Below, in pieces: positions 678 to 18,576 of a stretch of 20,000 nt of DNA. The stretch lies in assembly GCA_009602735.1 (NCBI GenBank), contig WELA01001020.1, positions 204,932 to 224,931 on the forward strand, written 5' to 3'. The translations under genes were made by a program, and so were the position numbers. Below the pieces are notes generated by a model that was given only the letters and a program-made list of their open reading frames with translations, did not search any database and was not told the origin of the DNA. Position 1 is the first letter of the stretch. Each line of letters starts with the position of its first letter. The DNA is from Mesotaenium endlicherianum (lineage: Eukaryota).

Positions 678-2354
678 TTAAGGGGTGGTTCCTGGGGCTT
701 CAGGATCAGGGGACGGAGATCTGGACCTAGATCTGGACAGCCCTCTAGGTCTGTCAGCTGGCCTTCTAAAGAACCCGGTTTGCTCTAAAGTTGGACCTCG
801 AGGAGAACGAAGGATGGTAGCCTGCTCTTCAACCACTTGGGTGTTGATGCCCACATAGACAGGCATTCCAGTAGGATGCTGAAATACATTGGCTAGAGGT
901 ACATGCCCCTGAGCGGAGGGGGAGGCTGGCATACCTCTGGCCCACCCGCGTGTCCCTCTTCTGGCACCCCTGTCCTCTGGGGATTTCTGCCTGTGTCTGC
1001 TGCCCAATACAGTCAGATCAGCTTCTTCCCCTGCTTGGGCAGGTGGGCTGTGGGAGCGAGCGCGGGCTCCAGTTGTCGCCATAACGGGGATCACATTCCA
1101 AACACCTGATCGTGGTTCTTTAAGAAGCGCCCCTACCTGTCCCTGGGTATCCTGAGTACCTGCTGCTGATGCTTCTCCTCTGCCTTGTTCTTCTTCCTCA
1201 TCCTCCTCATCCTCCTCCTCGGAGAGAGTAGGGGTCTCGTCCACTAAGTCGTCCTGCTCCCTAGTAGACATGGAGTAGTCTACCGACCTCCCTTTCTTAG
1301 GGCGCGCTGGAGGTTGCTTGGCCTTCAGCCTACTGATATCTATCCGGCCTGCATTCTTTGCCCATTTGACAAAGGCATGCTTTCCCTTAGAGAAGTACTC
1401 TCTTCCCCTCCTCCTATGTTCCTTGGTCTCTGCATTCATATTGCTCAGGCATCCATTCAGCCTGGGGTCCCAAGGGGCAATGTGAGGTGGTAGGATGAGA
1501 TAGCCGTCTAGGCCATAGTGGAAGTCATCCGGTTGGGCTCGGTCACACTCCTGCTTCTTATTTGTGACGGTCATCCACCTCCAGTCTGTTGGCTGCTGGT
1601 AGTACTGGGGTCCGTGCTCAGCCTTCCTCAGTTTACACGGGAACCAGTGGGGAGAGAACATCTGCTGTCCTGCTTCCCTGGCCAAGTACTCCCAGCTCCT
1701 TCTCTCAACTTCATTGTAAGCTGGCAGGAGTGTGAGGTAGAATACCGTATCCTTAAAGCTATCGGGCCGCATGCTCACCATCCGGATGAGTCTCTGATCT
1801 CCCACTATTCCCGGTATGGGGACCGGCTTGTCCTCTGAATCATCTGCGAGATACCGGGCCTGCTCTGCTGTATAGCCCACCATCTTAGCATAATCTTCGT
1901 AAAGGACCACGCCGGTGTGTGTCTCGATGTACCTGTCCAGTGCTGTAGCTCCTTCCTTCTGTAGCAGTGTTGTCTGTTCCAGCCTGTTGATCTCCTGGGC
2001 TGCCAGCAATGCTTCCTTCAGGTTATCGAAGTTTTGGCCACCCACCACAGTATACCTGTAAGTGGCCAAGCTCTTCTGTCTGTCCGCTTCAATCTTTTTT
2101 CTTTTCTCCTCTTCTGCCGCTGCCGCTTCTTCTTGCTGTTTCTTCTGTCTCTCCTCCTCAGCCTTCCTGAGGTTTTCCGCTTCCTGATCCTTCTTCCTCT
2201 GTGCCTCTTCTGCCGCCTCTTGTTGTTTGCGGACCCTTTCTTGTTCTCTCCTGGTGAGGGACGTCGCCGCCAGCTCCTTCTGGTATTGCTCCATTGTCCT
2301 CCTGGCTTCTTCTGCCTTGCGCTTTCTGTCCTCCTTTTGTGTGGTGGGCGCCAT
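678..2354 (-). CDS. Accessory ORF3 of the retrotransposon, about 558 aa, unknown function: charged coiled-coil N-terminus, aromatic/Pro-rich globular core, basic NLS-like patch, acidic tract, RS/SP tail
   Basis: Uninterrupted 1.7-kb sense ORF between the pol stop and the PPT. The ORF track starts at a TTG at 2378, but the in-frame ATG at 2354 follows a TGCAG splice acceptor. No hydrophobic TM segment or signal peptide. Confidence 0.8.
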   Translation of the reverse strand: MAPTTQKEDRKRKAEEARRTMEQYQKELAATSLTRREQERVRKQQEAAEEAQRKKDQEAENLRKAEEERQKKQQEEAAAAEEEKRKKIEADRQKSLATYRYTVVGGQNFDNLKEALLAAQEINRLEQTTLLQKEGATALDRYIETHTGVVLYEDYAKMVGYTAEQARYLADDSEDKPVPIPGIVGDQRLIRMVSMRPDSFKDTVFYLTLLPAYNEVERRSWEYLAREAGQQMFSPHWFPCKLRKAEHGPQYYQQPTDWRWMTVTNKKQECDRAQPDDFHYGLDGYLILPPHIAPWDPRLNGCLSNMNAETKEHRRRGREYFSKGKHAFVKWAKNAGRIDISRLKAKQPPARPKKGRSVDYSMSTREQDDLVDETPTLSEEEDEEDEEEEQGRGEASAAGTQDTQGQVGALLKEPRSGVWNVIPVMATTGARARSHSPPAQAGEEADLTVLGSRHRQKSPEDRGARRGTRGWARGMPASPSAQGHVPLANVFQHPTGMPVYVGINTQVVEEQATILRSPRGPTLEQTGFFRRPADRPRGLSRSRSRSPSPDPEAPGTTP

Positions 2355-2621: not shown

Positions 2622-5600
2622 TTATGGAGGGACTCCAGCGGCCCGAAGGTGGAACCGTGTCAACGCCCCTTTGGCATTGGTCAAGTGGTCCTTAAACTCC
2701 CAAGTGTCCCCAGAGGCATCGTAACCCTTCCATCGAATGAGGTATTTCATGACATATTTAGACGATCGACGGACCGAGCGAGCGTCTAAAATCTCATCGA
2801 CCTCATATTCCTCAGGGTCGCCGTCCCGGACAGCGGGGACCGGTCCCGGTTGGACAGGGAACCGACCTGTGAACAGTGTATCACCTTTGATGTACGGTTC
2901 CAGGAAGGAGACATTAAAGACCGGGTGCCCCTTGTATTCAGCTGACATGTTCAGTTTGTAAGCATTCTGACCGACACGACGGACCACCGAATATGGACCG
3001 ACCCAGACAGGGCCAAGCTTTTTCTTGACCACACCAGGGAGGTACAGGTGCTGAGAATGCAGTTTGACTAAATCCCCCTTGGAAAATGTCAGTTCCCGAC
3101 GGTGTTGATTAGCGTATTTTTGTTGGTTTTCTTGGGCCGTGTGCAAGTTTCGTTGGACTTCTGACAGGGTGTCAGCAAACTCCTGAGTTAACTGGAGGGA
3201 GACCGGGTTGTCAATCCCTTCAGGGTGAGTTAAAGATTCCCCTAGCACATCTAGAGGAGACTTAGGGACTCTACCCAGGCTGAGTTCAAAAGGAGTTTTG
3301 CCCGTTGACGCGTGCACCGCACTGTTGACCGCAAACTGAATTTGAGGCAACAGGTCATCCCAATTATCTTGTTTTTGGTTAATATATGCTCTCAGCACCT
3401 CCTGCAGAACTCGGTTAGTTCTTTCAGTCTGCCCATCAGTCTGAGGGTGGTTTGCTGTGCTGAGCAGCTGTTTGACTCCCATTAACCCCATTAAAGCTCT
3501 CCAGAACTTAGAGGTGAATTTTGAGTCTCTGTCTGAGATGATATTAGAAGGGAGCCCATGTTGGCATACTACATGGTTGTAAAACTGTCTCGCTGTTTCG
3601 AGTGCAGTCACTTTGACAGTTGTGGGGATAAAAATGACCATTTTTGTCAGTTTATCCACGACTACCAGTATTGAATCATGCCCGTTGGCAGTTCTTGGTA
3701 GTGAGACCACCCAGTCCATGGATATAGTTTCCCAGCGTCCCGCTGGGATGGGTAGCGGTTGCAAGAGACCTCCGGGTGGTGTGTGCCGAGACTTATTTCT
3801 CTGACACTGGTCACAGGACTTGACATATTTCAAGACCTCCCGGGGTAACCCCTCCCAATGATAATGTTTTGCCAGTTTGCCAACAGTTTTGGCCTGCCCC
3901 AAATGTCCACCCAGGAGACTGTCATGAGCTTGACTCAGTAAGAGAGACCTTATTTCCAAATTATTAGGAATGACCAGCTTCAGCCTGCCTGAAGTGGTTT
4001 CAGACACCCAGACCCACCCCTTGAGCTTATACCCGAGTGCAGTAGCACGACACACAGCAGTAGTGGGGCTGGGCTCAAATGTTGGGTCAAAAAGGTAGGC
4101 TTTCCTAAGTTGTTCAAGGAAGGACTTTTTCACTTTTAGTGAAGTGAGTGCACACAGGACTTTATCTACAGTATGCTGACTAAAGTTCCTTTCTTGCAAG
4201 TCAGGTCTTCTAGAGAGTGCATCAGCAGGATTCAACTTCCCTGGTTTGTAGTCGATCTGGACTTGGAACTGCTCCAGCATCTGGCTCCAGCGGTTCTCCC
4301 TCCTCGACAGCTTGGACTTCTTCTGAAAGTGGGTCAGAGCTAGATGATCTGTAATCACCTTAAAAGCTTTACCATGTAAGTATGCTCTCCACTGTTTGAG
4401 TACATGAATGATAGCTAGCAGCTCTTTATCATGCACTGAGTAATTAATCTCCGCTGGATTAAATTTCATAGACTCATACAACACAGGATGCCACTCCTGC
4501 CGTACCTTACCATCCTTTGTGGTTTTGTCAGCAGGCTGCAACAAAATAGCACCCATGGCAAAATCAGAGGCATCAGTAACCACCTGCACCGGTTTGCTGG
4601 GGTCATACACGGCTAGCACTGGGGCAGAACAAAGGGCATCTTTAAGGGTCTGGAAGGCAGCCTGCTGCTCTTCCCCCCACACATACCCGATGTCTTTCTT
4701 AGTAAGGTCAGTCAGTTTACTGGCCTTTGTGGAATAATTCTCAATAAATCTCCTATAGTAGTTAGCCAACCCGAGGAAGGATCTAACTTCAGAGACAGAC
4801 TGTGGTACTGGCCAGTCCCTTATGGTCTGGACTTTCTTAGGATCCACACTGATGCCCTCTTTACTGACAACGTGGCCTAAGAATTCAATACTTTCCTTAA
4901 AGAAATCACACTTGCTCATTTTAGCATACAAGTGATTTTTCCGCAGAGTGTCCAGCACTTTCTTTAAGTGTTCAGTGTGCTGAGCTTCATCTTTAGAGAA
5001 AATTAAAATATCATCCAGGAAAACTTGCACAAACTTATCCAAATAAGGTCTGAAAATGTCATTCATAGCACCCATAAAGGTAGCAGGAGCATTAGTCAGT
5101 CCAAATGGCATCACGTTGAACTCATAGTGTCCATAACGTGTGCGGAAAGCAGTCTTGTGTTCATCCCCCTCAGCAATTCTGATTTGATGATAACCACTCT
5201 TGAGATCTATCTTACTGAACACCTTAGCGCCAGACAGGGTATCAAGCAAGTCCTCGATTCTGGGTAAAGCATACTTGTTCTTTACTGTAATTCTGTTCAG
5301 GGCTCTGTAATCCACACACATCCGCATACTGCCATCCTTTTTCTTAACAAATAGGATAGGTGCGCCGTACGGTGATTTACTGGGAGAAATGTAACCATTT
5401 TCCTCCAGCTCTGCAATCTGTGTTTTCAACTCCTCACTCTCCAAATAAGACAAGCCATACGTGCGTTGCCAGGGTGGCTGGCTACCAGGTAATAAATCAA
5501 TCCTATGATCTACTTCCCGCTTAGGGGGTAGTCCTGGAGGCATATTAAACACATCCGTGTACTGAGCAACAATGTTTGCAGCAGTAGGGTGTTCCGGAGG

Positions 5601-6431
5601 GTGTACCTTTTTCTCAACCACTTCTTCAGGTTGAGGAGGTACCTCTCTTAGCAGCAGACAGAACATTCTGTCTTCCTTCTGGTTCCAGCTTTTGACGAAC
5701 TCCATTGCATTCAGCAACTTGCATCCTTCTGGAAGCCTCTTCTTTTCCTTCATTTGCCATCCACACAGGACAAGAGGAAGAGCACTGGTGGGTGCCAAGT
5801 CAGTCTGCCCATCACTGGCTCCTCTCACTTTAACTGTACCTCTGCTCCAACACACTTCAGCTTGATGTCTATTAAGCCAGGACCTGCCTAGCACGAGATC
5901 ATAAAAGCCAGTGTTGAGTACCTCAAATGTAAGCGTTTCAGTTAGAACTGCAATGCCAGAACCTAACTGGACCTCAATAGGCTTGGTTATAACTCCTCCC
6001 GGGATACTTGAGGCATCTCCAAGGAATATTTTTCTATTCCCTTGGGTGACAGTAGGCAGCCTTAGCCGCTTAACTAAGTCCTTGTGGATAAAAGTATGTG
6101 ACGCCCCTCCGTCAACAAATGCCCTCACCTTCCTACCTGCAATCATGCAATGCAGTAGGATAGGGGGGACTGTCTTTTCCTGACTTTCGCATTGTTCTCC
6201 TGACGTAGCAAAGAAATGTTGGACATCAGGTGGAACAAGAGCATCCAGAGTGTGCACTCTCTGGACGTCTATATTGCTGATGGTCTCCTTTATCTGGTTG
6301 TCAGGCATGCATAGTGAATCCAGTTCAGCAGGACCCATAATACCTGCTACGAGGGCAGCTAGTGACGACTCACTATCTCTAGCATCCTCACAGTCAGTAG
6401 ACTGGATTACTGACTGTTGCTGTCTTTTAAA
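2622..6431 (-). CDS. pol: Pol polyprotein (aspartic protease, reverse transcriptase, RNase H, integrase, chromodomain), predicted Gag-Pol fusion via -1 frameshift; first in-frame ATG at 6338
   Basis: [51 protein letters not shown] zinc finger H-x6-H...CDQC, SMDW, SDRD, ERTNR, GPY; chromodomain EYEVDEILD...YLIRWKGY...DTWE. Frame open from 6452. Confidence 0.97.
2650..2810 (-). other. Chromodomain at integrase C-terminus with intact aromatic-cage residues
   Basis: [44 protein letters not shown]. Confidence 0.9.
6390..6431 (-). promoter_or_regulatory. Predicted -1 programmed ribosomal frameshift signal
   Basis: In-phase heptamer U UUA AAA (6431-6425), 7-nt spacer, perfect 10-bp stem ACAGUCAGUA/UACUGACUGU with 8-nt loop. 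Lies in the 46-nt gag/pol overlap. Confidence 0.85.
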
Positions 6432-7885
6432 GGCTGGTCTTTTCTCTCGACCTTAGGCAGGTGCTTGACCGGACACTGTTCTCTGTAGTGGCCTTTCTGC
6501 TGACAATGGTAGCAAGTAGATTTTGCTGAGGCTGGTCTCGGCTTAGTCCTACCACCACCCCTTCCATAGCCACCTCGAGAGGGACCACCTCTACCTCTAG
6601 ACTGAATAGCATTGTACTCATACTCATATTCATCACCCTGATTATCCTCAGCCTGGTCTCCTTCAACTGCATTGTAGGAACCGTGGGGCTTTTTGACAAT
6701 CTTAGACACCAAAGCGTTACTCTGGCGCTTGTGATTGAACTGCTGCTGATCCCAGGCGTCAGCATCCTGGATCAAGTCAGCCAGTTTCTCATACTTTTTC
6801 TCAGCAAAATGACCAGAGACCTCGGATTTCAAGCCATACCTGAAGTATGCTATCCTATACCGTTCTGGCAAATCAGGCTGCTTCATCATGTTCTCTTGGA
6901 ACTTTTGAGCAAACTCAGCAACTGAAGTGGTCTGCTTCAGTGTCAGGGAGATCATCGCATAGATAGCTTTCTCCTGCTGGTTGATGACATCAAACTTCTC
7001 ATGCAACTTCTCGACAAACTCTACCCACGTAGGGTCACCGAGTTGCCGAGCCTTACGCTCTTCCTTCCAGTAAAGCCACCAGTCTGCGGCACTGCCTTTC
7101 AGTAGCGCATCGGTGTGCCTGACCTTCTCGTAATCTTGCAGTTCTGGGTAGTTCTCCAGCCACTGCTCAACATCCGCGAGAAACTTGATCAGGTAATATT
7201 TTCTGTTTCCCTCAGGATCATAGCCCTGGGGAGGTTTCGGCTTGGGCTTACTAGGCCCTCGGCCACCACCACTAGTGGTGTGAGACCCCAGTTGGTCTCT
7301 GTCCCGGAGTAGGGACATTATGATTCTTTTGTCCTCCTGCTGGGACTGATACATGGTCGCCATTTGCGACTGCATCTGAACAAACAATGCTCCCAAGTCT
7401 ACATTTTGGGGTGGTAGATTAGCAGATGCAGCAGCAGCATTGGCATCCACTCGCTGAGTAGTGTCCTCAACAGTCCCTCTTGCTCCTGCAGCAGCAATTT
7501 CTGCCGCATTCAGCCGGTCACGTATTTGACCTAGGGGTACATTGAGTTGTACGGCAGGAGGTGGGTTCAGAACATTGGCCCTTGATGCCATAAGTTCTTC
7601 AACAGTGCGCTCGTCAGCTGGCTGTCCTTCCCTCCTTTGTATATCTTCAGCGGCCTTTGCTACTTGTTCAGCTTCTAGTCTGGCTATCTCCTCCTCAGCT
7701 TGCTGAGCTGCGACTGAGGCAATAGCAGCTGCCTCATCTGCAGCCTCCCTAGCTGCAGTATCCGCTACTGCTTCCGAATAGGTACGGTTTCCCGCTACAT
7801 GGCTTTCCGCCTGGTTTTCGACATTCTCGTTATCCTGGTTCTCCATGTCTCGGGAGTTGCTAGTTTGAGACCTTGTCCTTACCAT
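6407..7885 (-). CDS. gag: Gag (capsid, RGG tract, CCHC nucleocapsid), 492 aa
   Basis: MVRTRSQ start; [46 protein letters not shown] capsid-like motifs; zinc knuckle [14 protein letters not shown]. Confidence 0.95.
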
Positions 7886-7906: not shown

Positions 7907-7918
7907 GCTCCGATACCA
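7907..7918 (-). other. Primer binding site, tRNA-iMet-like
   Basis: TGGTATCGGAGC 1 nt after the LTR CA end. Differs from the common plant TGGTATCAGAGC by one base (G.U-compatible). Confidence 0.85.
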
Positions 7919-7919
7919 C

Positions 7920-8664
7920 TGAAATGAATCGACTTACCAAATAGGCGATTAACAATTAATAAAGATCTTTATATCAGCAAGTAATCTTTATGGTATTTCC
8001 GTTAACTAGTTAAACGGCAAAGGACAATACACTAGCAGGGAATAATACTCGTAAGTCAAATGCGAGTAAACTAGCATCAATGATGCAAATCAGTAAACTC
8101 ATACATAAGCAAGGTTAGAAGACAGTGCGTATCAATGGCTTCTCGCCTTGGATTCAGAGTTCTCTCAGTAAGCTGTACAAGAAAGTTGGCCTCGTTTCCG
8201 AATGCCCAACTCGAGAGCAATGCCTAGCATATGTACATGGAATGAGTATACTGTTCAACGGTCAGTGCAATGGCACCGCCTACCCGGGAGTTAACCACGT
8301 TGGTAGGACCTCTGTTAACCAAATCCACCGCCATCTCCCATCATCCCGAATAGCCATCCATCATGGGGATGTCATCTGGCCATTCATCTAGCAGGTGGTA
8401 CTTAGATGCATATCAAGGCAGTTCGCTGCTACCGAGCATGGAAGTCAGCTGGCTGTCAAAGAATGTGTCAGCAAGCTGACTTAAGTTGACTTCAGCCTGC
8501 TGCTTTTGGCCGAGTCATTAAACTGATACTTATGTAAAGTTCAGCAGACTGATTACTAACTAAAGTTCAGCAGACTGACTACTAACTAAAGTCCAGCAGG
8601 CTGAACTAAATTAACTAATATATTTAAATGAATATTATATCTACTAATATACTGATTCATTACA
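7920..8664 (-). repeat. 5' LTR of element 1 (745 bp)
   Basis: TG...CA termini with 10/11 inverted repeat (TGAAATGAATC / GATTCATTACA), adjacent to the PBS. Confidence 0.95.
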
Positions 8665-9681
8665 TATATCAGTCATATATAGGATGTAATATCAGTAGGT
8701 TGACATATAGTAAGCTCTCCTCATATTAGTCAGTAGACGTAGCTTCAGTACGCTGAGGATAGATACATTCATTTAGATTATTATTTGTAGATTGGCACAT
8801 GTAACCGTAGTATACTGAAAGTCGGAAGGTCGGCAGAGATTCGGTAAACCGATGTCCTACCAGTGTGGTCAACTCCTGGGTGGGCGGAGCCGTCGTCAGT
8901 CAACTGAACAATTAGGACTTCAATCAACCGACCAATTAATATGGTCGTTATACCTAGATCCGTGGGTCCCAACTTAACGGGTTTCCCACGACACGGCGCA
9001 CCTTGCGTCGTGGTCAACCAGGTGGTCACTAGGTACTTAGCAGGCTGGGATCTCGTGGTCCCTCATTCTGGACAGTAGGCTTTATAGTCGGATTTCTACT
9101 TGCAAGTGATGTGTGCACTTTTTGGGTTAGTTCTAGTGACCAGCCTTCACGAAAATTGACATGGCTGCTTCGTTTGCGCTCCAAATGGAGCGAACTAGAA
9201 CTTTTCGGAAAGGTCTTGTCAAGATGCATCCGTTGCCGTTAAGTTTGCAAAATTTGGAGTAGTATTAACAGAGACATGCCCTCTGACAGTTTGGGGTCAC
9301 ACAACGGACAGATTCCATGGTTTTTGCACCTAAGTCAGTGGGATGTGTTTGAGCTACTTTATGGTCATCTGAATGAGAGCGCCTTTGCTATTCAGTCCCC
9401 TGATGTTGTGTATGTGCTTACATATGCTTGTGTGCCTGGTAGGCAAGAGGTCATGAGTTTCTAAAGGAGAAGCTCTAGTCCTCAAGCTCGCCTCTTTCTT
9501 GTGCCTTGTATTTGTGTGCAACTATGGCACACTACGATAAGTGAGTCAAGGGTTATAGATGAGTAAACGGAATTCATTATAAGGGCAAAGATCGCTCCCT
9601 GATTTCACACGCTTCCACCTATCTCTGATCTTTTATATTCAAATGAAATATATTAATCTTGAATAAGCAAGATTCATTTCA
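8665..9681 (+). mobile_element. LTR of a related but distinct family, opposite orientation (solo or 3' LTR; left boundary uncertain, TGTAAT at 8685)
   Basis: Ends GATTCATTTCA, the same terminus as the element-1 LTR. 8829-8894 is about 78% identical to the reverse complement of 169-235. No PBS follows; element-2 integrase sequence resumes at 9682. Confidence 0.7.
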
Positions 9682-12600
9682 GTCCCCTTTGGTGTAAGGT
9701 TCTAGGAAGGAGACATTAAAGACCGGGTGACCCTTGTATTCTGCTGACATGTGCAGTTTGTAAGCATTCTGACCGACACGGCGCACCACCGATATGGATC
9801 GACCCAGACAAGACCAAGCTTTTTCTTGACCACACCAGGGAGGTACAGGTGTTGAGAATGTAGTTTGACTAAATCGCCCTTAGAAAAGGTCAGTATTCGA
9901 CGGTGCTGATTAGCGTACTTTTGTTGGTTTGCTTGGGCTTTGTACAGCTTCTGTTGGACTTCTAACAGGGCGTCAGCAAACTCCTGAGTTAACTGGAGGG
10001 AGATCGGGTTGTCAATCCCTGCAGGGTGAGTTAAAGACTCCCCTAGGACATCTAAAGGAGACTTAGGGACTCTATCCAGGCTTAGTTCAAGAGGAGTCTT
10101 GCCCGTTGACGCGTGCACCGCATTGTTGACCGCAAATTGGATTTGAGGTAACAAGTCATCCCAATTATTTTATTTTTGGTTAATATAGGCTCTCAGTACC
10201 TCTTGCAGAACTCGATTAGTTCTTTCAGTCTGCCCATCAGTCTGAGGGTGGTTTGCTGTGCTGAGCAGCTGCCTGACTCCCATTAACCCCATTAAAGCCC
10301 TCCAGAACTTAGAGGTGAATTTTGAGTCTCTGTCTGAGATGATATTAAAGGGTAGCCCATGTTGGCAAACTACATGGTTGTAGAACTGTCTCGTTGTTTC
10401 GAGTGCAGTTACTTTGACAGTTGTGGGGATGAAAATGACCATTTTTGCCAGTTTATCCACAACTACTAGTATCGAATTATGCCCATTGGCAGTTCGTGGC
10501 AGTGTGACCACCCGGTCCATGGATATTGTTTCCCAGCGGCCAGCTGGGATGGGCAGCGGTTGTAAGAGGCCCCCCGGTGGTGTGTGCCAAGACTTATTAC
10601 TGGTCACAGGACTTAGCGTATTTCAAGACCTCCCAAGGTAATCCCTCCCAATGATAATGTTTTGCCAGTTTGCCAACAGTTTTGGCCTGCCCCAAATGCC
10701 CACCCAGTAAACTGTCATGTGCTTGACTCAATAAGAGGGACCTTATTTTCACGTTATTAGGAACGACCAGCTTCAGCCGGCCTGAAGTGGTTTTAGTCAC
10801 CCAGGCCCCTCCCTTAAGCTTATACCCGAGTGCAGTAGCACGACACACACCAGTAGTGGGGTTGGGCTCAAATGTTCGGTCAGAAAGGGAGGCTTTCCTA
10901 AGTTGTTCAAGGAAGGATTTTTTCACCTTCAGCGAAGTGAGTGCACACAGGACTTTATCTACAGCATGCTGACTAAAGGTCCTTTCTTGCAAGTCAGGTC
11001 TTGTAGAGAGGGCATCAGCAGGATTTAACTTCCCTGGTTTGTAGATGATCTGGACTTAGACTGCTCCAGCATCTGGCTCCAGCGGTTCTCCCTCCTTGAC
11101 AGCTTGGACTTCTTCTGAAAGTGAGTCAGAGCTAGATGATCTGTAATCACCTTAAAAACTTTACCATGTAAGTATGCTATCCATTGTTTGAGCACATGAA
11201 GGATAGCTAGCAGCTCTTTATCATGCACTGAGTAATTAATCTCCGCTGGATTAACTTTCATACTCGTACAACACAGGATGCCACTCCTGCCGTACATTAC
11301 CATCCTTTGTGGTTTTGTCAGCAGGCTGCAACAAAATAGCACCCATGGCAAAGTCAGAGGCATTAGTGACCACCTGCACCCGTTTGCTGGGGTCATACAC
11401 GGCTAGCACTGGGGCAGAACAGAGAGCATCTTTAAGGGTCTGGAAGGTAGCCTGCTGCTCTTCCCCCCACACATACCCTATGTCTTTCTTAGTAAGGTCA
11501 GTCAGTTTACTGGCCTTTGTAGAATAATTTTCAATAAGTCTCCTGAAGTAGTAAGCCAACCCAAGGAAGGACCTAACTTCAGAGACAGACTGTGGTACTG
11601 GCCAATCCCTTATGGTTTGGACTTTCTTAGGATCCACACTGATGCCTTCTTTACTGACAACGTGGCCTAAGAATTCAATACTTTCTTCAAAGAAATCACA
11701 CTTGCTCATTTTAACATGTAAGTGATTTTTTCTCAGAGTGTCCATGACTGTCTTTAAGTGTTCAGTGTGCTGAGCTTCATCTTTAGAGAAAATTAAAATA
11801 TCATCCAGGAAAACTTGCACAAACTTATCCAAATAAGGTCTAAAAATGTCATTCATAGCACCCATGAAGATCGCAGGAGCATTAGTCAGTCCAAATGGCA
11901 TCACGTTGAACTCATAGTGTCCATAACGTGTGCGGAAGGCAGTCTTGTGTTCATCCCCCTCAGCAATTCTGATTTGATGATAATCACTCTTGAGATCTAT
12001 CTTACTGAACACCTTAGCACCAGACAGGGTATCAAGCAAGTCCTCAATTCTGGGTAAAGAATACTTGTTCTTTACTGAAATTTTGTTCAGAGCTCTCTAA
12101 TCCACACACATCCGCATACTGTCATCCTTTTTCTTACCAAATAGGATGGGTGCGCCGTAAGGTGATTTACTTGGGGAAATATAACCATTTTCCTCAAGCT
12201 CTGCAATCTGTGTTTTCAACTCCTGGCTCTCCACATAAGACAAGCCATAAGTGCGTTGCCAGGGTGGCTGACTCCCAGGTAATAAATCAATCCTATGATC
12301 CACTTCTCTCTTAGAGGGTAGTCCTGGAGGCATGTTAAATACATCCGTGTACTGAGCAACAATTTTTGCAGCAGTAGGGTGCTCCGAAGGACTTACCTTT
12401 TTCTCCACCACTTCTTCAGGTTGAGGAGGTACCTCTCTTAGCATCAGACAGAACATTCTATCTTCCTTCTGGTTCCAGCTTTTGACGAACTCCATTGCAA
12501 TCAGCAACTTGCATCCTTCTGGAAGCCTCTTCTTTTCCTTCATTTGCCATCCACACAGGAGAAGAGGAAGAGCACTGGTGGGTGCCAAGTTAGTCTGCCC

Positions 12601-13221
12601 ATCACTGGCTCCTCTCACTTTCACTGTACCTCTGCTCCAACACACTTCAACTTGATGTCTATTAAGCCAGGACCTGCCTAGCACGAGAATTTAAAAGCCA
12701 TTGTTGAGTACCTCAAATGTAAGCATTTCAGTTAGAACTGCAATGCCAGAACCTAACTGGACCTCAATAGGCTTGGTTATAACTCCTCCCGGGATACTTG
12801 AGGCATCTCCAAGGAATATTTTTCTATTCCCTTGGGTGACAGTAGGCAGCCTTAGCCGCTTAACTAAGTCCTTGTGGATAAAAGTATGTGACGCCCCTCC
12901 GTCAACAAATGCCCTCACCTTCCTACCTGCAATCATGCAATGCAGTAGGATAGGGGGGACTGTCTTTTCCTGACTTTTGCATTGTTCTCCTGACTTAGCA
13001 AAGAAATGTTGGACATCAGGTGGAACAAGAGCATCCAGAGTGTGCACTCTCTGGACGTCTATATTACTGATGGTCTCCTTTATCTGTTTGTCAGGCATGC
13101 ATAGTGAATCCAGTTCAGCAGGACCCATAATACCTGCTACGGGGGTAGCTAGTGACGACTCACTATCTCTAGCATCCTCACAGTCAGTAGATTGGATTAC
13201 TGACTGTTGCTGTCTTTTAAA
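9682..13221 (-). pseudogene. pol: pol pseudogene of element 2
   Basis: Broken into at least 7 ORF pieces with stops (12691, 12097, 10170, 9702) and frameshifts, e.g. an 8-bp deletion near 10598. Confidence 0.92.
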
Positions 13222-15354
13222 GGCTGGTCTTTTCTCTCGACCTTAGGCAGGTGCTTGACCGGACACTGTTCTCTGTAGTGGCCTTTCTGCTGACAATGGT
13301 AGCAAGTAGATTTTGCTGAGGCTGGTCTCGGCTTAGTCCTACCACCACCCCTTCCATAGCCACCTCGAGAGGGACCACCTCTACCTCTAGACTGAATAGC
13401 ATTGTACTCATACTCATATTCATCACCCTGATTATCCTCAGCCTGGTCTCCTTCAACTGCATTGTAGGAACCGTGGGGCTTTTTGACAATCTTAGACACC
13501 AAAGCGTTACTCTGGCGCTTGTGATTGAACTGCTGCTGATCCCAGGCGTCAGCATCCTGGATCAAGTCAGCCAGTTTCTCATACTTTTTCTCAGCAAAAT
13601 GACCAGAGACCTCGGATTTCAAGCCATACCTGAAGTATGCTATCCTATACCGTTCTGGCAAATCAGGCTGCTTCATCATGTTCTCTTGGAACTTTTGAGC
13701 AAACTCAGCAACTGAAGTGGTCTGCTTCAGTGTCAGGGAGATCATCGCATAGATAGCTTTCTCCTGCTGGTTGATGACATCAAACTTCTCATGCAACTTC
13801 TCGACAAACTCTACCCACGTAGGGTCACCGAGTTGCCGAGCCTTACGCTCTTCCTTCCAGTAAAGCCACCAGTCTGCGGCACTGCCTTTCAGTAGCGCAC
13901 CGGTGTGCCTGACCTTCTCNCTTCGGAAGGTGCTTGACTGGACACTGTTCTCTGTAGTGGCCCAACTGCTGACCATGGTAGCGTATGGATTTTGATGAGG
14001 CTGGTTTCGGCTTAGTCCTACCACCACCTCTTCCATAGCCGCCTCGAGAGAAACCACCTCTACCTCTAGACTGTATAGCATTATACTCATATTCATATNT
14101 TCATCATCCTGATTATCCTCAGCCTAGTCTCCTTCAATTGCATTCTAGAAATCTTGGGGCTTTTTGACAATCTTAGACACCAAAGCATTACTCTGGCGCT
14201 TGTGATTGAACCGCTGCTGATCCCAGGCATCAGCATCCTGAATCAAGTCAGCCAGTTTTTCATACTTCTTCTTAGTAAAATGACCCGAGACTTCGGATTT
14301 CAAGCCATACCTGAAGTATGCTATCCTATATCGTTCTGGCAAGTCTGGCTGTTTCATCATGTTCCCAAAAACTTCTGAGCAAACACAACAACTGAAGTGG
14401 TCTGCTTCAGTGTCCGGGAGGTCGTCGCATAGATAGCTTTCTCCTGCTGGTTGATGACATCAAACTTCTCATGCAACTTCTCGACAAACTCTACCCAAGT
14501 AGGGTCACCGAGTTGCGGAGCCTCACGCTCTCCTTTCCAGTATAGCCACCAGTCTGCGGCACTGCCTTTCAGTAGCGCACCGGTGTGCCTGACCTTCTCG
14601 TAATCTTGCAGTTCTGGGTAATTCTCCAGCCACTTCTCAACATCCGCGAGAAACTTGATCAGGTAATATTTTCTGTTTCCCTCAGGATCATAGTCCTGGG
14701 GAGGTTTCGGCTTGGGCTTACTAGGCCCTCGGCCACCACCACTAGTGGTGTGAGACCCCAGTTGGTCTCTGTCCCGCAGTAGAGACATTATGATTCTTTT
14801 GTCCTCCTGTTGGGACTGATACATGGTCGTCATTTGCGACTGCGTTTGAACGAACAATGCTCGCAAGTCCACACCCTGGGGTGGTAGTCTAGCAAATGCA
14901 GCAGCAGCATTGGTATCTACTCGCTGAGTAGTGTCCTCAACAGTCCCTCTCGCTCCTGCAGCAGCATTTCCTGCCGCATTCAGCCGGTCACGTATTTGAC
15001 CTAGGGGTACATTGAGTTGTACAGCAGGAGGTGGGTTCAGAATATTGGCCCTGGATGCCATAAGTTCTTCACAGTGCGCTCGTCAGCTGGCTGTCCTTCC
15101 CTCCCTTCTGTATCTTCAGCAGCCTTTGCTAATTGTTCAGCTTCTAATCTGGCTCTCTCCTCCTCAGCTTGCTGAGCTGCGACTGCGGCAATAGCAGCTG
15201 CCTCATCTGCAACCTCTCTAGCTGCAGTATTTGCCACTGCTTCAAAATAGGTATGGGTTCCCGCTACATGGCTTTCCGCCTGGTTTTCGACATTCTCGTT
15301 ATCCTGGTTCTCCATGTCTCGTGAGTTGCTAGTTTGAGACCTTGTCCTTACCAT
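13197..15354 (-). pseudogene. gag: gag pseudogene of element 2 with duplicated 3' part joined by single Ns
   Basis: Frameshifts near 15070 and 14365, stop at 14145, Ns at 13920 and 14099. 13921-14600 repeats about 13242-13919. Confidence 0.85.
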
Positions 15355-15375
15355 ACAAAGAAGACTGTGATAACT

Positions 15376-15387
15376 GCTCCGATACCA
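15376..15387 (-). other. Primer binding site of element 2
   Basis: TGGTATCGGAGC, identical to element 1. Confidence 0.85.
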
Positions 15388-15388
15388 C

Positions 15389-16106
15389 TGAAATGAATCG
15401 ACTTACCAAATAGGCGATTAACAATTAATAAAGATCTTTATATCAGCAAGTAATCTTTATGGTATTTCCGTTAACTAGTTAAACGGCAAAGGACAATACA
15501 CTAGCAGGGAATAATACTCGTTAGTCAAATGCGAGTAAACTAGCATCAATAATGCAATCAGTAAACTCATACATAAGCAAGGTTGGAAGACAGTGCGTAT
15601 CAATTGCTTCTAGCCTTGGATTCAGATCTTTCTCAGTAAGTTGTACAAGAGAGTTGGCCTCGTTTCCGAATGCCGAACTCGAGAGCAATGCCTAGCATAT
15701 ACACAAGGAATGAATTTACTGTTCAACGGCCAGTGCGATGGCACCGCCTACCCGGGAGTTAACCACGTTGGTAGGACCTCGGTTAACCAAATCCACCGCC
15801 ATCTCCCATCATCCCGAATCGCCATCCATCGTAGGGATGTCATCTGGCCATTCATCTAGCATACCACACTTAGATGCATATCGAGGCAGTTTGCTGCTAC
15901 CGAGTACGGAAGTCAGCTGGCTGTCAAAGAATGAGTCAGCAAGCTGACTTGAGTTGACTTCAGCCTGCTGCTTCCGGCTGAGTCCTTAAAGTGATAATTA
16001 TGTAAAGTCCAGCAGACTCAATACTACATGAAGTTCAGTAGGCTGAACTTAAATAACTATTATAGTTAAACGAATATTATATCTACTAATATACTGATTC
16101 ATTACA
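15389..16106 (-). repeat. 5' LTR of element 2 (718 bp; one 26-bp U3 unit fewer)
   Basis: TGAAATGAATC...GATTCATTACA, alignable with 7920-8664. Confidence 0.93.
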
Positions 16107-16591
16107 AACGTCTAAACCTCATACACAAAATCCCAGACCCTAAATCTTGAGTTACAAGTAGTCAATGTGTTTATGTGTGTATGTGTGTGTGCGTGTGTGC
16201 GTGCGTGTGTGTGTATGTTTGTGGGTGTGGGTGCGTGTGTGCGTGTGTGTGTATGTGTTTGTGGGTGTGTGCGTGTGTGTGTGTGTGCATGCAAGTCAAA
16301 TGTACAACACCCAAACGTCTAGACCTCACACACAAAATCCCAAACCCTAGAACTTGAGTTACAAGTAGTTAATGTGTGTGTGTGTATGTGTGCGTGCGTG
16401 CTTGTGTGTGTGTGCGTGTGTGTGTGCATGTGTGAGTGCATGCAAGTCAAATGTACAACATCCAAACGCCTAGACCTCACACACAAAACACCCTAAACCC
16501 TAAACCTTGAGTTACTAATAGTCAATGTATTTGTGTGTGTATGTGTGTGTGTGTGTGCGCGTGCGTGTGGGTGTGTTTGTGAGTGTGCGTG
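16107..16591. repeat. Three-unit compound satellite: about 85-bp core plus variable (GT)n tract
   Basis: Units start at about 16107, 16313, 16464 (AAACGTCTAGACCTCACACACAAAATCCCAAACCCTA...CTTGAGTTACAAGTAGTCAATG(GT)n GCATGCAAGTCAAATGTACAACA). Confidence 0.9.
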
Positions 16592-16862
16592 TGTAATGAA
16601 TCAATACATTGGTAGATATAATTATTCATTTACATATAATAGTTATTTAAGTTCAGCCTACTGAACTCTAGTTGATATTCAGTCTGCTGGACTTTATATT
16701 GAATATCAGTTTAATGACTCAGCCGGAAGCAACAGGCTGAAGTCAACTTTAGTCAGCTTGCTGACACATTCTTTGAGAGCCAGCTGACTTCCGTACTCGG
16801 TAGCAGCGAACTGCCTCGATATGCATCTAAGTGTGATACGCTAGATGAATGGCCAGATGACA
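16592..16862 (+). repeat. Truncated LTR (first ~270 bp, U3) of the same chromovirus family, inverted relative to element 2
   Basis: Begins TGTAATGAATC. Reverse complement of about 15840-16106. Similarity ends abruptly at ...GGCCAGATGACA. Confidence 0.9.
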
Positions 16863-17216
16863 AGTGAAAGAACCCTTGCCCCCATGTCCAAGTGTGCTTG
16901 ATATCTTTGCCTTCGTACACCATGAACACCTCATTGGCCCACTTGGGCCAGCGTCCTTCTCTAACCAAAGAAACTTAGTCTCCCATGAGCTCTTATACAC
17001 ATTTGTGAACTCTTCCCTTGTTCTCTCCATATTGGTGGACCCTGTTACAGCACTTACTACTTCCTCCGCACCCTCACACCCTTGTGCAACACTTGCACGT
17101 CCCCTATTTTCCACAAGAATCTCGTCTCCTTCAACAACTGGCTTGCTAGATATCAAGAAGGAAGTTAATCTACTTTGACTTCTTCTTGCTTTCTTAGAAG
17201 GCCTTTCAATAGTCAT
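16863..17216 (-). pseudogene. N-terminal fragment of a hAT/ZNF862-like transposase (TTF-type zinc-finger-like region), truncated
   Basis: VYKSSWETKFLWLEKDAGPSGPMRCSWCTK...GKGSF resembles the W-x3-F-x-WL...C-x2-C motif. Upstream candidate intron 17353-17225 (AG|GTAAAG, CTAAT, TGCAG). Possible CAGTG terminus at 17897. Confidence 0.5.
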
Positions 17217-18576
17217 GTTTATGCCTGCACACTCAAGGACAAGAAACACAAATTAGGCTGTACGTCCACATTGTAGAGACTGAATTTTTAATGTGAAGTA
17301 ACAAGAATAGAAATGAGCACAAGTAGCACATAATAGAAGTACCAATACTTTACCTCGTGCAGATATGTGTGCAAATCCGCCCCTTTTGAAAGCTCTAAAG
17401 ATTATAAATGCTATGCCTCATTCCTCCAAAACAGAAATAAACAATTGGCTAGTGGTGTATATTTGAAGTATACTTAAGGTTTTAAATGGTTATGCATTAA
17501 CAATAAATTATAGCACACAATGAGAGCCCTAGAGCACACCTCCTTGTTCGTCAAATTAAGTGTAAGTTTGAAGTCTCATTTTCAGGTTAAGTTTTAGTCT
17601 CAGCGTCCGTTGAAGTCTATTCGAAAGAAGGGTTTGCCTTCGTAAATCAAAGTAGGGCCCAGGGGTTTGCAGGTTGTACGGGGACCTACTGCCGGCGACG
17701 AGGGTGAACCGTGAAAGGGAGGCCAGTGTACGGCATTCCAACTTCTGAATTCTCTCGAGTCGTTGGCGATTCGTGGACCACTGACGATGCAATGACAAGT
17801 CGTAGGCTTTAGCCTGTAGGCCGTGGGCCTAGCCCCGGGGGCCCGGGCTCCGTACCCTTAGCCCTTTGGAAAAAAAACACCCGACATATAATCACTGGAT
17901 TTCCTTGGCATCCAAATCAAGAATTGCCGGGTTTTATGTGCCATCCGCCTTGAACGAACTGGGTTTGTTTTCGACATCCATCTGTTTTTGGTCGGTTTTT
18001 ATAACATCCAAGAATGAATAATAACACCCAAAAAGTTATGAATCCAGGGGTCTGCTCCGGAGTCCGGACTGCCCCTCCCATCCCCCCCCCCTCCCAGCAG
18101 GCTAAAAGTCGGGGATAGATTTTGACCTGAGACTTTGAGCTGCTTTTGGCCAATTCCGGCACATTGTGGCACAGGGGCCTGGTCTTCCAGGGACTTTCAG
18201 GCAGCTCAGGTGACTGCTTGGATACATGTGGCCGGTAATCTTCCAGAAGGGCCAGGGCGTTTGATATTAATTTATCTTGTTTTCTTCTTGCTCGTCTGTT
18301 GTACCTCTGGCATGTAGGGGAACGCCTTCGACGTCACATAGAGAGGCAATTCGCTATCACCGATATGATTTCATGATGATCACCTCGTTCAGTTATTTTT
18401 GAACACTGCGACACCAGTGACCAAGCAGCAACAAGCAAGCACCAAGTAAAAAGTGTCTATTGCAACAGTTAGGATATTGGCGAAGTTCAAGGTGGCAAGG
18501 AGGCAGATGTACTTTCGAGGAGGCCTGACTTTTGTTCGTTGATATACATGAAGGCCTACAGCACACTGACGCAACC

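Follow-up and report, generated by a model that had tools for sequence, protein, structure and literature searches.

The window analysed here, a stretch of 20,000 nucleotides of Mesotaenium endlicherianum DNA (contig WELA01001020.1, positions 204,932 to 224,931), begins with a minus-strand LTR retrotransposon whose intact gag and pol are followed, in the same orientation, by a third intact open reading frame, here called ORF3 (Table 1). The order of protease, RT, RNase H, then integrase, the C-terminal chromodomain, and the LTRs, PBS and PPT identify the element as a chromovirus (Ty3/gypsy). The 3′ LTR differs from the 5′ LTR at 10 positions over the 564 nt inside the window, in agreement with the young element with LTRs about 98% identical that the initial annotation had described. 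Tandem repeats of 26 bp, possible enhancer repeats, lie inside the LTR (389–504 and 8489–8604). Pol overlaps gag in the −1 frame, and folding of the region gave the stem-loop behind the heptamer; a heptamer with a stem-loop within a gag/pol overlap is an established arrangement of −1 frameshift sites and is read as such here. The PBS (7918–7907) matches, at 11 of 12 bases, what we take to be the primer site of the plant initiator tRNA-Met.

Table 1. Features of the chromovirus and of the ORF3 protein (window positions unless marked aa)
Feature	Position	Strand	Remarks
3′ LTR	1–564	minus	extends beyond window edge; 98.2% identical to 5′ LTR
Terminal PPT	567–579	minus	two bases ahead of 3′ LTR
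ORF3	678–2354	minus	558 aa and stop
ORF3, putative single alpha-helix	aa 5–100		
ORF3, orphan core	about aa 98–345		W/Y/P-rich
ORF3, basic patch	aa 343–356		
ORF3, acidic run	about aa 378–389		
ORF3, tail	after acidic run		ends in SR/SP repeats; low-confidence, likely disordered
Candidate intron in ORF3 leader	2356–2458	minus	103 nt, predicted; donor, branch point and acceptor motifs
First PPT copy	2561–2573	minus	13-mer identical to terminal PPT; ends 61 nt after pol stop
12-mer after pol stop	2588–2599	minus	exact repeat at ORF3 stop (679–668)
pol	2622–6452	minus	intact; protease, RT, RNase H, integrase, group I chromodomain
Predicted −1 frameshift signal	6391–6431	minus	in gag/pol overlap; T TTA AAA heptamer (6431–6425), then 10-bp stem-loop
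gag	6407–7885	minus	intact; Ty3 capsid-like domain, CCHC knuckle
PBS	7907–7918	minus	
5′ LTR	7920–8664	minus	TG...CA, 745 bp

The chromodomain retains the aromatic cage Y/W/Y of group I, which together with the overlapping gag and pol gives the element two traits of the Tcn1 clade, while the self-priming trait of that clade is not matched, the PBS being presumably of the tRNA-Met type. According to the available text of PMC6317226, 83% of Tcn1 members are self-priming and 5% use tRNA-Met, and the aromatic-cage chromodomain is confined among plants to non-seed groups. In a quick RT–RNase H tree of 50 rows, which took 49 of 109 eligible proteins (19 named and the best 30 unnamed) without REXdb references, the element had a long branch, belonged to none of the starred sets, fell outside the 100-supported seed-plant clade and was assigned to no named clade, and its RT–RNase H region shared at most 63% identity with any compared sequence. 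No relatives of gag were found at E 1e-5, so that the lineage is poorly sampled and the orphan status of ORF3 is weaker than it would seem.

The window holds another copy of the family at 9683–16107, degenerate and with 94.5% identity across pol; as it is truncated at 9683, ahead of the chromodomain, it is uninformative on the presence of ORF3. A 680-bp duplication in its gag lies beside single Ns at positions 13920 and 14099 and may mark an assembly join. The C-to-T rates between the two window copies (0.076 in CG, 0.066 in CHG and 0.032 in CHH) show a plant-like methylation pattern, with CG and CHG pressure on the family. On the sequence evidence, the host would be a non-seed plant or a streptophyte alga. 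Abutting the truncated copy is a plus-strand stretch of about 1 kb (8686–9681) that starts with TGTAAT, shares its last 11 bases with the family's LTR end and matches the LTR over 58 nt at 83%; it is likely an oppositely oriented LTR from a related family. Tandem repeats of roughly 150 bp, followed by an inverted partial LTR (16588–16862) that faces the 5′ LTR of the second copy head to head, make up 16105–16862, and a 141-aa frame at 16827–17252 (minus) has a W..KF.WL...CxxC pattern that we take to resemble a hAT-type transposase zinc finger.

Anatomy and orphan character of the ORF3 protein

At the local base composition, 558 open codons would arise by chance with a probability of about 5e-11, and the other five frames over ORF3 contain 9–30 stops each. 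CpG depletion by codon position is nearly equal in ORF3 (0.54/0.39/0.36) and pol (0.56/0.39/0.37), which suggests that ORF3 has long been resident under the same mutation pressure as pol. The synonymous codon fit of ORF3 to gag and pol is weak, at 0.024 in frame and up to 0.042 off frame, and does not separate the frames. Residues 7–97 hold 26 opposite-charge pairs at i+3 and 25 at i+4, against about 14 in shuffles, and none of 2000 shuffles reached either count, so that the salt-bridge spacing of the helix points to selection on the protein in the ORF3 frame. A coding history probably shaped at the protein level is supported. An Arg/Lys-rich alternative frame (2018–2473) and an antisense frame (1965–2477), both over the helix region, were set aside as likely shadows of purine-rich codons.

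The initial annotation had described an intact sense ORF of about 558 aa between pol and the PPT, coding for a soluble, non-env protein with a coiled coil of about 100 aa, a W/Y/P-rich core, a basic patch, the acidic run EEEDEEDEEEE and an SRSRSRSPSP tail. Most of this description held. Translation returned the frame at full length with all the quoted motifs, the core contains 6 W, 15 Y and 14 P within 248 aa, and NLS-like clusters accompany the basic patch and the acidic run. The highest 19-residue Kyte-Doolittle mean is only 0.73, so that ORF3 has no TM helix and, with no hydrophobic segment, is not env-like. Its N-terminus is charged, unlike a signal, and hydropathy over the whole protein gave neither the signal peptide nor the transmembrane helix that are hallmarks of env-like products, as in Athila, SIRE and errantiviruses; the soluble, non-env character is thus supported. 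The coiled coil did not hold, because each of the seven heptad registers of residues 7–97 has 0–2 hydrophobic residues and no hydrophobic heptad is present, and the charge spacing fits a single alpha-helix instead. AlphaFold in single-sequence mode modelled a long helix at the N-terminus with pLDDT 72–91 and gave nearly everything past residue 97 values below 50.

Searches for relatives of ORF3 were negative throughout. Pfam gave no match above cut-off, including Athila ORF1, plant mobile domain, Transposase_28 and DUF390; PHROGs, NCBIfam, PDB sequences, and metagenome and viral contig scans held no homologue; and tblastn against 80 compared loci gave no match. With the core alone, phmmer returned no hit at E up to 0.001 among 1.84 billion protein representatives, and a word search among proteins of length 306–977 found no relative. 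No RNA-binding, dsRNA-binding, chromatin-reader or other domain was recognisable in the protein, and the best ESM Atlas scores (0.82 and 0.87) were at noise level and serve as leads only. Structure prediction, which the initial annotation had proposed for the core, succeeded for the N-terminal helix and failed for the core itself, since two single-sequence AlphaFold runs gave no confident fold there (mean pLDDT 34 for the core alone, and 43). The suggestion of an unrecognised core, possibly of a new protein family, held in every library searched, and no confident match to an env-like or described extra-ORF family appeared in Pfam or the sequence libraries.

Cassette boundaries, candidate splice signals and distribution

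ORF3 begins 267 nt past the pol stop, behind a spacer of about 270 nt, and ends 99 nt before the terminal PPT (579–567). The two spacers share the PPT 13-mer and the 12-mer of Table 1, and two shared words of at least 12 letters occurred in none of 3000 random window pairs. The first PPT copy has no LTR TG after its end and so cannot define the end of the element. Relatives were surveyed at 80 loci, 45 of which reach the chromodomain (3 too short, 14 without and 28 with a PPT call); among the matches listed, no more than 160 nt separate the pol stop from the end of the PPT in 17 of the 28 relatives with a call (35–58% identical), which would place the first PPT at the ancestral position. Among the same matches, no sense ORF of more than 110 aa lies between pol and PPT in any of the 28 distant relatives, including the nine whose pol–PPT spacer exceeds 300 nt, so that the gene would be dispensable for the wider lineage. 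Judging from this arrangement, the first PPT is likely the ancestral one, and ORF3 was likely acquired as a cassette behind it, together with a duplication of the element's end. The first PPT possibly acts as a second plus-strand priming site, a central PPT of the kind known for Ty1, EVADE and HIV (PMC7197481). Long sense ORFs past pol in several compared loci turned out to be the gag of a circularly permuted contig rather than ORF3. A distant chromovirus (L067) carries a 244-aa antisense ORF (4055–4786, minus) in a 1.76-kb pol–PPT spacer, a Boty/Retand-like layout.

The donor of the candidate intron, AG/GTAA, is the sole AGGTAA of the 7.36-kb internal region, the candidate branch point TACTAAC lies at 2385–2379, and the TGCAG acceptor stands one base ahead of the ORF3 ATG. 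Both TACTAAC copies of the internal region fall in the 270-nt spacer, and as this stretch is locally repetitive they may not be independent. A donor-like GTAAG directly after the gag ATG is a candidate alternative splice donor, and one contig (record 3 of run X4) retains the candidate intron. An ATG within the candidate intron opens an Arg/Lys-very-rich alternative frame of about 128 aa (2018–2404, minus).

RNA-seq coverage, which the initial annotation had put forward as a check on ORF3, came out negative: three polyA runs of one study, sampled at 6–12% of each, gave zero depth across 883–2352 and no splice joint to ORF3. Reads at least 99% alike to the element amounted to 8 of 227, 15 of 337 and 4 of 200 aligned reads in these runs, so that the young family is probably close to silent or absent in those RNA samples. 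Reads from diverged copies cover the LTR, gag and pol to about the pol stop and, at 90% likeness, none fall on ORF3; this pattern lends no support to expression, and the cassette may be absent from older subfamilies or present there in diverged form. Three RNA reads from run X23 jump over 159 nt at 4375–4535, the ends of the gap being GT..AG on the plus strand, which is an antisense splice in a diverged copy.

In public sequence data, 20 of the 24 runs listed (7 studies, 5 organism labels; one may be the window's own source) contain 66–89% of the words sampled from 600–2700. No RNA run figured among those listed as carrying these words, which bears on expression in neither direction. Among 8 of 129 records of run X4, at least three contigs match the cassette over 1639 letters without gaps and with 5 differences, and the pol comparison gave 18 differences in 2883 letters; one contig of this run continues from pol's end into ORF3. 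Every copy observed shows an identity of about 99% or higher. Such near-identical DNA across runs and contigs indicates that the cassette is not private to the source assembly.

ORF3 among known extra genes and its possible roles

Sense ORFs between pol and the 3′ LTR form a known class in plant LTR retrotransposons (aORF-3S or eORF-3′F; PMC7264820), and ORF3 fits the definition of an eORF-3′F, namely a sense frame of at least 250 codons that is separate from and downstream of pol. In the available text on REXdb, gypsy extra ORFs split into 314 unrelated groups, sense 3′ extra ORFs occur in 18% of 782 Tekay chromoviruses, and no extra ORF is listed for Tcn1, Chlamyvir, Galadriel, Reina or CRM (PMC6317226); a figure legend on a fungal chromovirus also marks an additional ORF of unknown function (PMC2864245). 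The earlier remark that extra ORFs are uncommon in chromoviruses hence agrees with the lineages for which none is listed, but not with Tekay or the fungal case. Extra genes have been described at this site before, and what ORF3 adds is an orphan protein with unusually clear capture and splice anatomy. In the mostly open-access literature searched, neither this element nor a chromovirus of its kind with a sense ORF between PPT copies is described; the REXdb per-element data could contain a similar example.

Relative to the plant eORF-3′F genes, including those of Tekay, the element of ORF3 differs in its group I aromatic-cage chromodomain, its overlapping gag and pol, its presumed tRNA-Met-type PBS and its quick-tree position outside the seed-plant clade, and ORF3 itself in having no TM segment and in being flanked by a duplicated PPT. 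Position, orientation, a length above 250 codons and orphan sequence are shared with these genes (PMC6317226, PMC7264820). Splicing has been reported for the extra ORF of barley Bagy2, whereas in ORF3 it is predicted from motifs. CERV, encoded by Cer1 of C. elegans, is likewise an orphan non-env product of an LTR retrotransposon, of about 500 aa, with a helical N-terminal part, a globular middle and basic NLS-like motifs; it comes from spliced RNA and has a demonstrated export role, whereas for ORF3 the spliced RNA is predicted and the export role hypothetical, and it further differs in sharing exons with gag and in having a Cys finger and a G-protein-like domain (PMC10309623). No search detected sequence similarity between CERV and ORF3. 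The antisense genes of Grande and Retand and the 5′ extra ORFs of Tekay encode soluble, (predicted) nuclear, partly disordered orphans that their families retain (PMC11963269, PMC11728184); ORF3 is likewise a soluble orphan and would resemble them in nuclear location, partial disorder and retention by its family, but they are antisense or at the 5′ position, and ORF3 has neither Transposase_28 nor a plant mobile domain. The non-env ORF3s of bdelloid rotifer LTR elements are family-specific sense third ORFs in the env position with typically spliced messages, but include recognisable esterases and exonucleases and belong to another host kingdom and lineage (PMC5408684).

Our preferred reading, held tentatively and at rather less than an even chance, is that ORF3 is a retained accessory gene whose product comes from spliced RNA and works within the nucleus on the RNA of its own element. 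Recombination or a template switch would have duplicated the element's 3′ end, leaving ORF3 between two PPT copies, the outer of which would now set the LTR edge. As a third cistron could not be read by scanning from genomic RNA, ORF3 would need its own message, which could arise if the acceptor at 2356 were joined either to the nearby donor at 2458 (with an internal promoter) or to the one at the gag start; and since the candidate intron is still present in the DNA, the genomic RNA that was replicated must have escaped splicing. The SR/SP tail resembles those of nuclear SR proteins, and the rigid charged helix, the Arg/Lys patches and this tail together make a role on unspliced RNA the most likely one. 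Nuclear and RNA-processing functions are over-represented among proteins with single alpha-helices; direct RNA binding by these helices is probably rare, which counts against a reading as RNA regulator (PMC5812594). CERV provides a working precedent for RNA export encoded by an element (PMC10309623). The ORF3 protein might thus help unspliced genomic RNA to be stabilised or exported, as CERV does in Cer1 and Rev in lentiviruses.

It is possible, though unlikely, that ORF3 is functional but counters host silencing instead of routing RNA, either by suppressing small RNAs or through chromatin anti-silencing of the VANC type. The basic patch, the acidic run, the NLS-like clusters and the CG and CHG pressure on the family (0.076 and 0.066, against 0.032 in CHH) would suit such a role, but neither a dsRNA-binding nor a chromatin-reader domain was detected, and plant mobile domain, Transposase_28, Athila ORF1 and all other Pfam families stayed below cut-off. 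A comparable idea has been raised for the 5′ extra ORFs of Tekay (PMC11728184).

An unlikely alternative sees ORF3 as a passenger: genuine coding DNA, taken up from another element or from an orphan gene of the host, that rides a recent burst at no benefit to the element. Transduced ORFs are a known class (PMC7264820), the flanking duplication resembles a single capture event, the copies are too young for decay, and the absence of ORF3 from distant relatives and of its reads from the sampled 6–12% of three polyA runs would be expected of cargo. Against this, no donor gene was present among the 1.84 billion protein representatives, the CpG profile equals that of pol, splice-like signals stand exactly at the ORF3 start codon, and the cassette DNA occurs under 5 organism labels. 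A reading of ORF3 as a strongly diverged structural protein (env-like, movement or capsid-like) from a described extra-ORF family is highly improbable, for although it takes the env position behind a candidate splice acceptor and the ESM Atlas listed potyvirus and flexivirus coat clusters for it at 0.81 and 0.79, shuffled proteins reach those scores a third of the time, neither coat family appears in Pfam at E up to 10 or in PDB sequences, and TM helix and signal peptide are absent.

If ORF3 is an accessory gene acting on the element's RNA, a more far-reaching and quite doubtful extension is that a non-seed-plant chromovirus has turned into a 'complex' retroelement, with a captured cassette, the old PPT as a second priming site and a Rev-like switch of new fold for splicing and export. 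If true, this would be the first Rev-like regulator found in a plant LTR retrotransposon. ORF3 is a candidate new protein family. As an intact frame next to intact gag and pol, with a precisely predicted splice junction, a recognisable scar of the presumed capture and coverage in public data of several studies, it offers a practical case in which to test whether genes of this sort act as regulators or ride as passengers.
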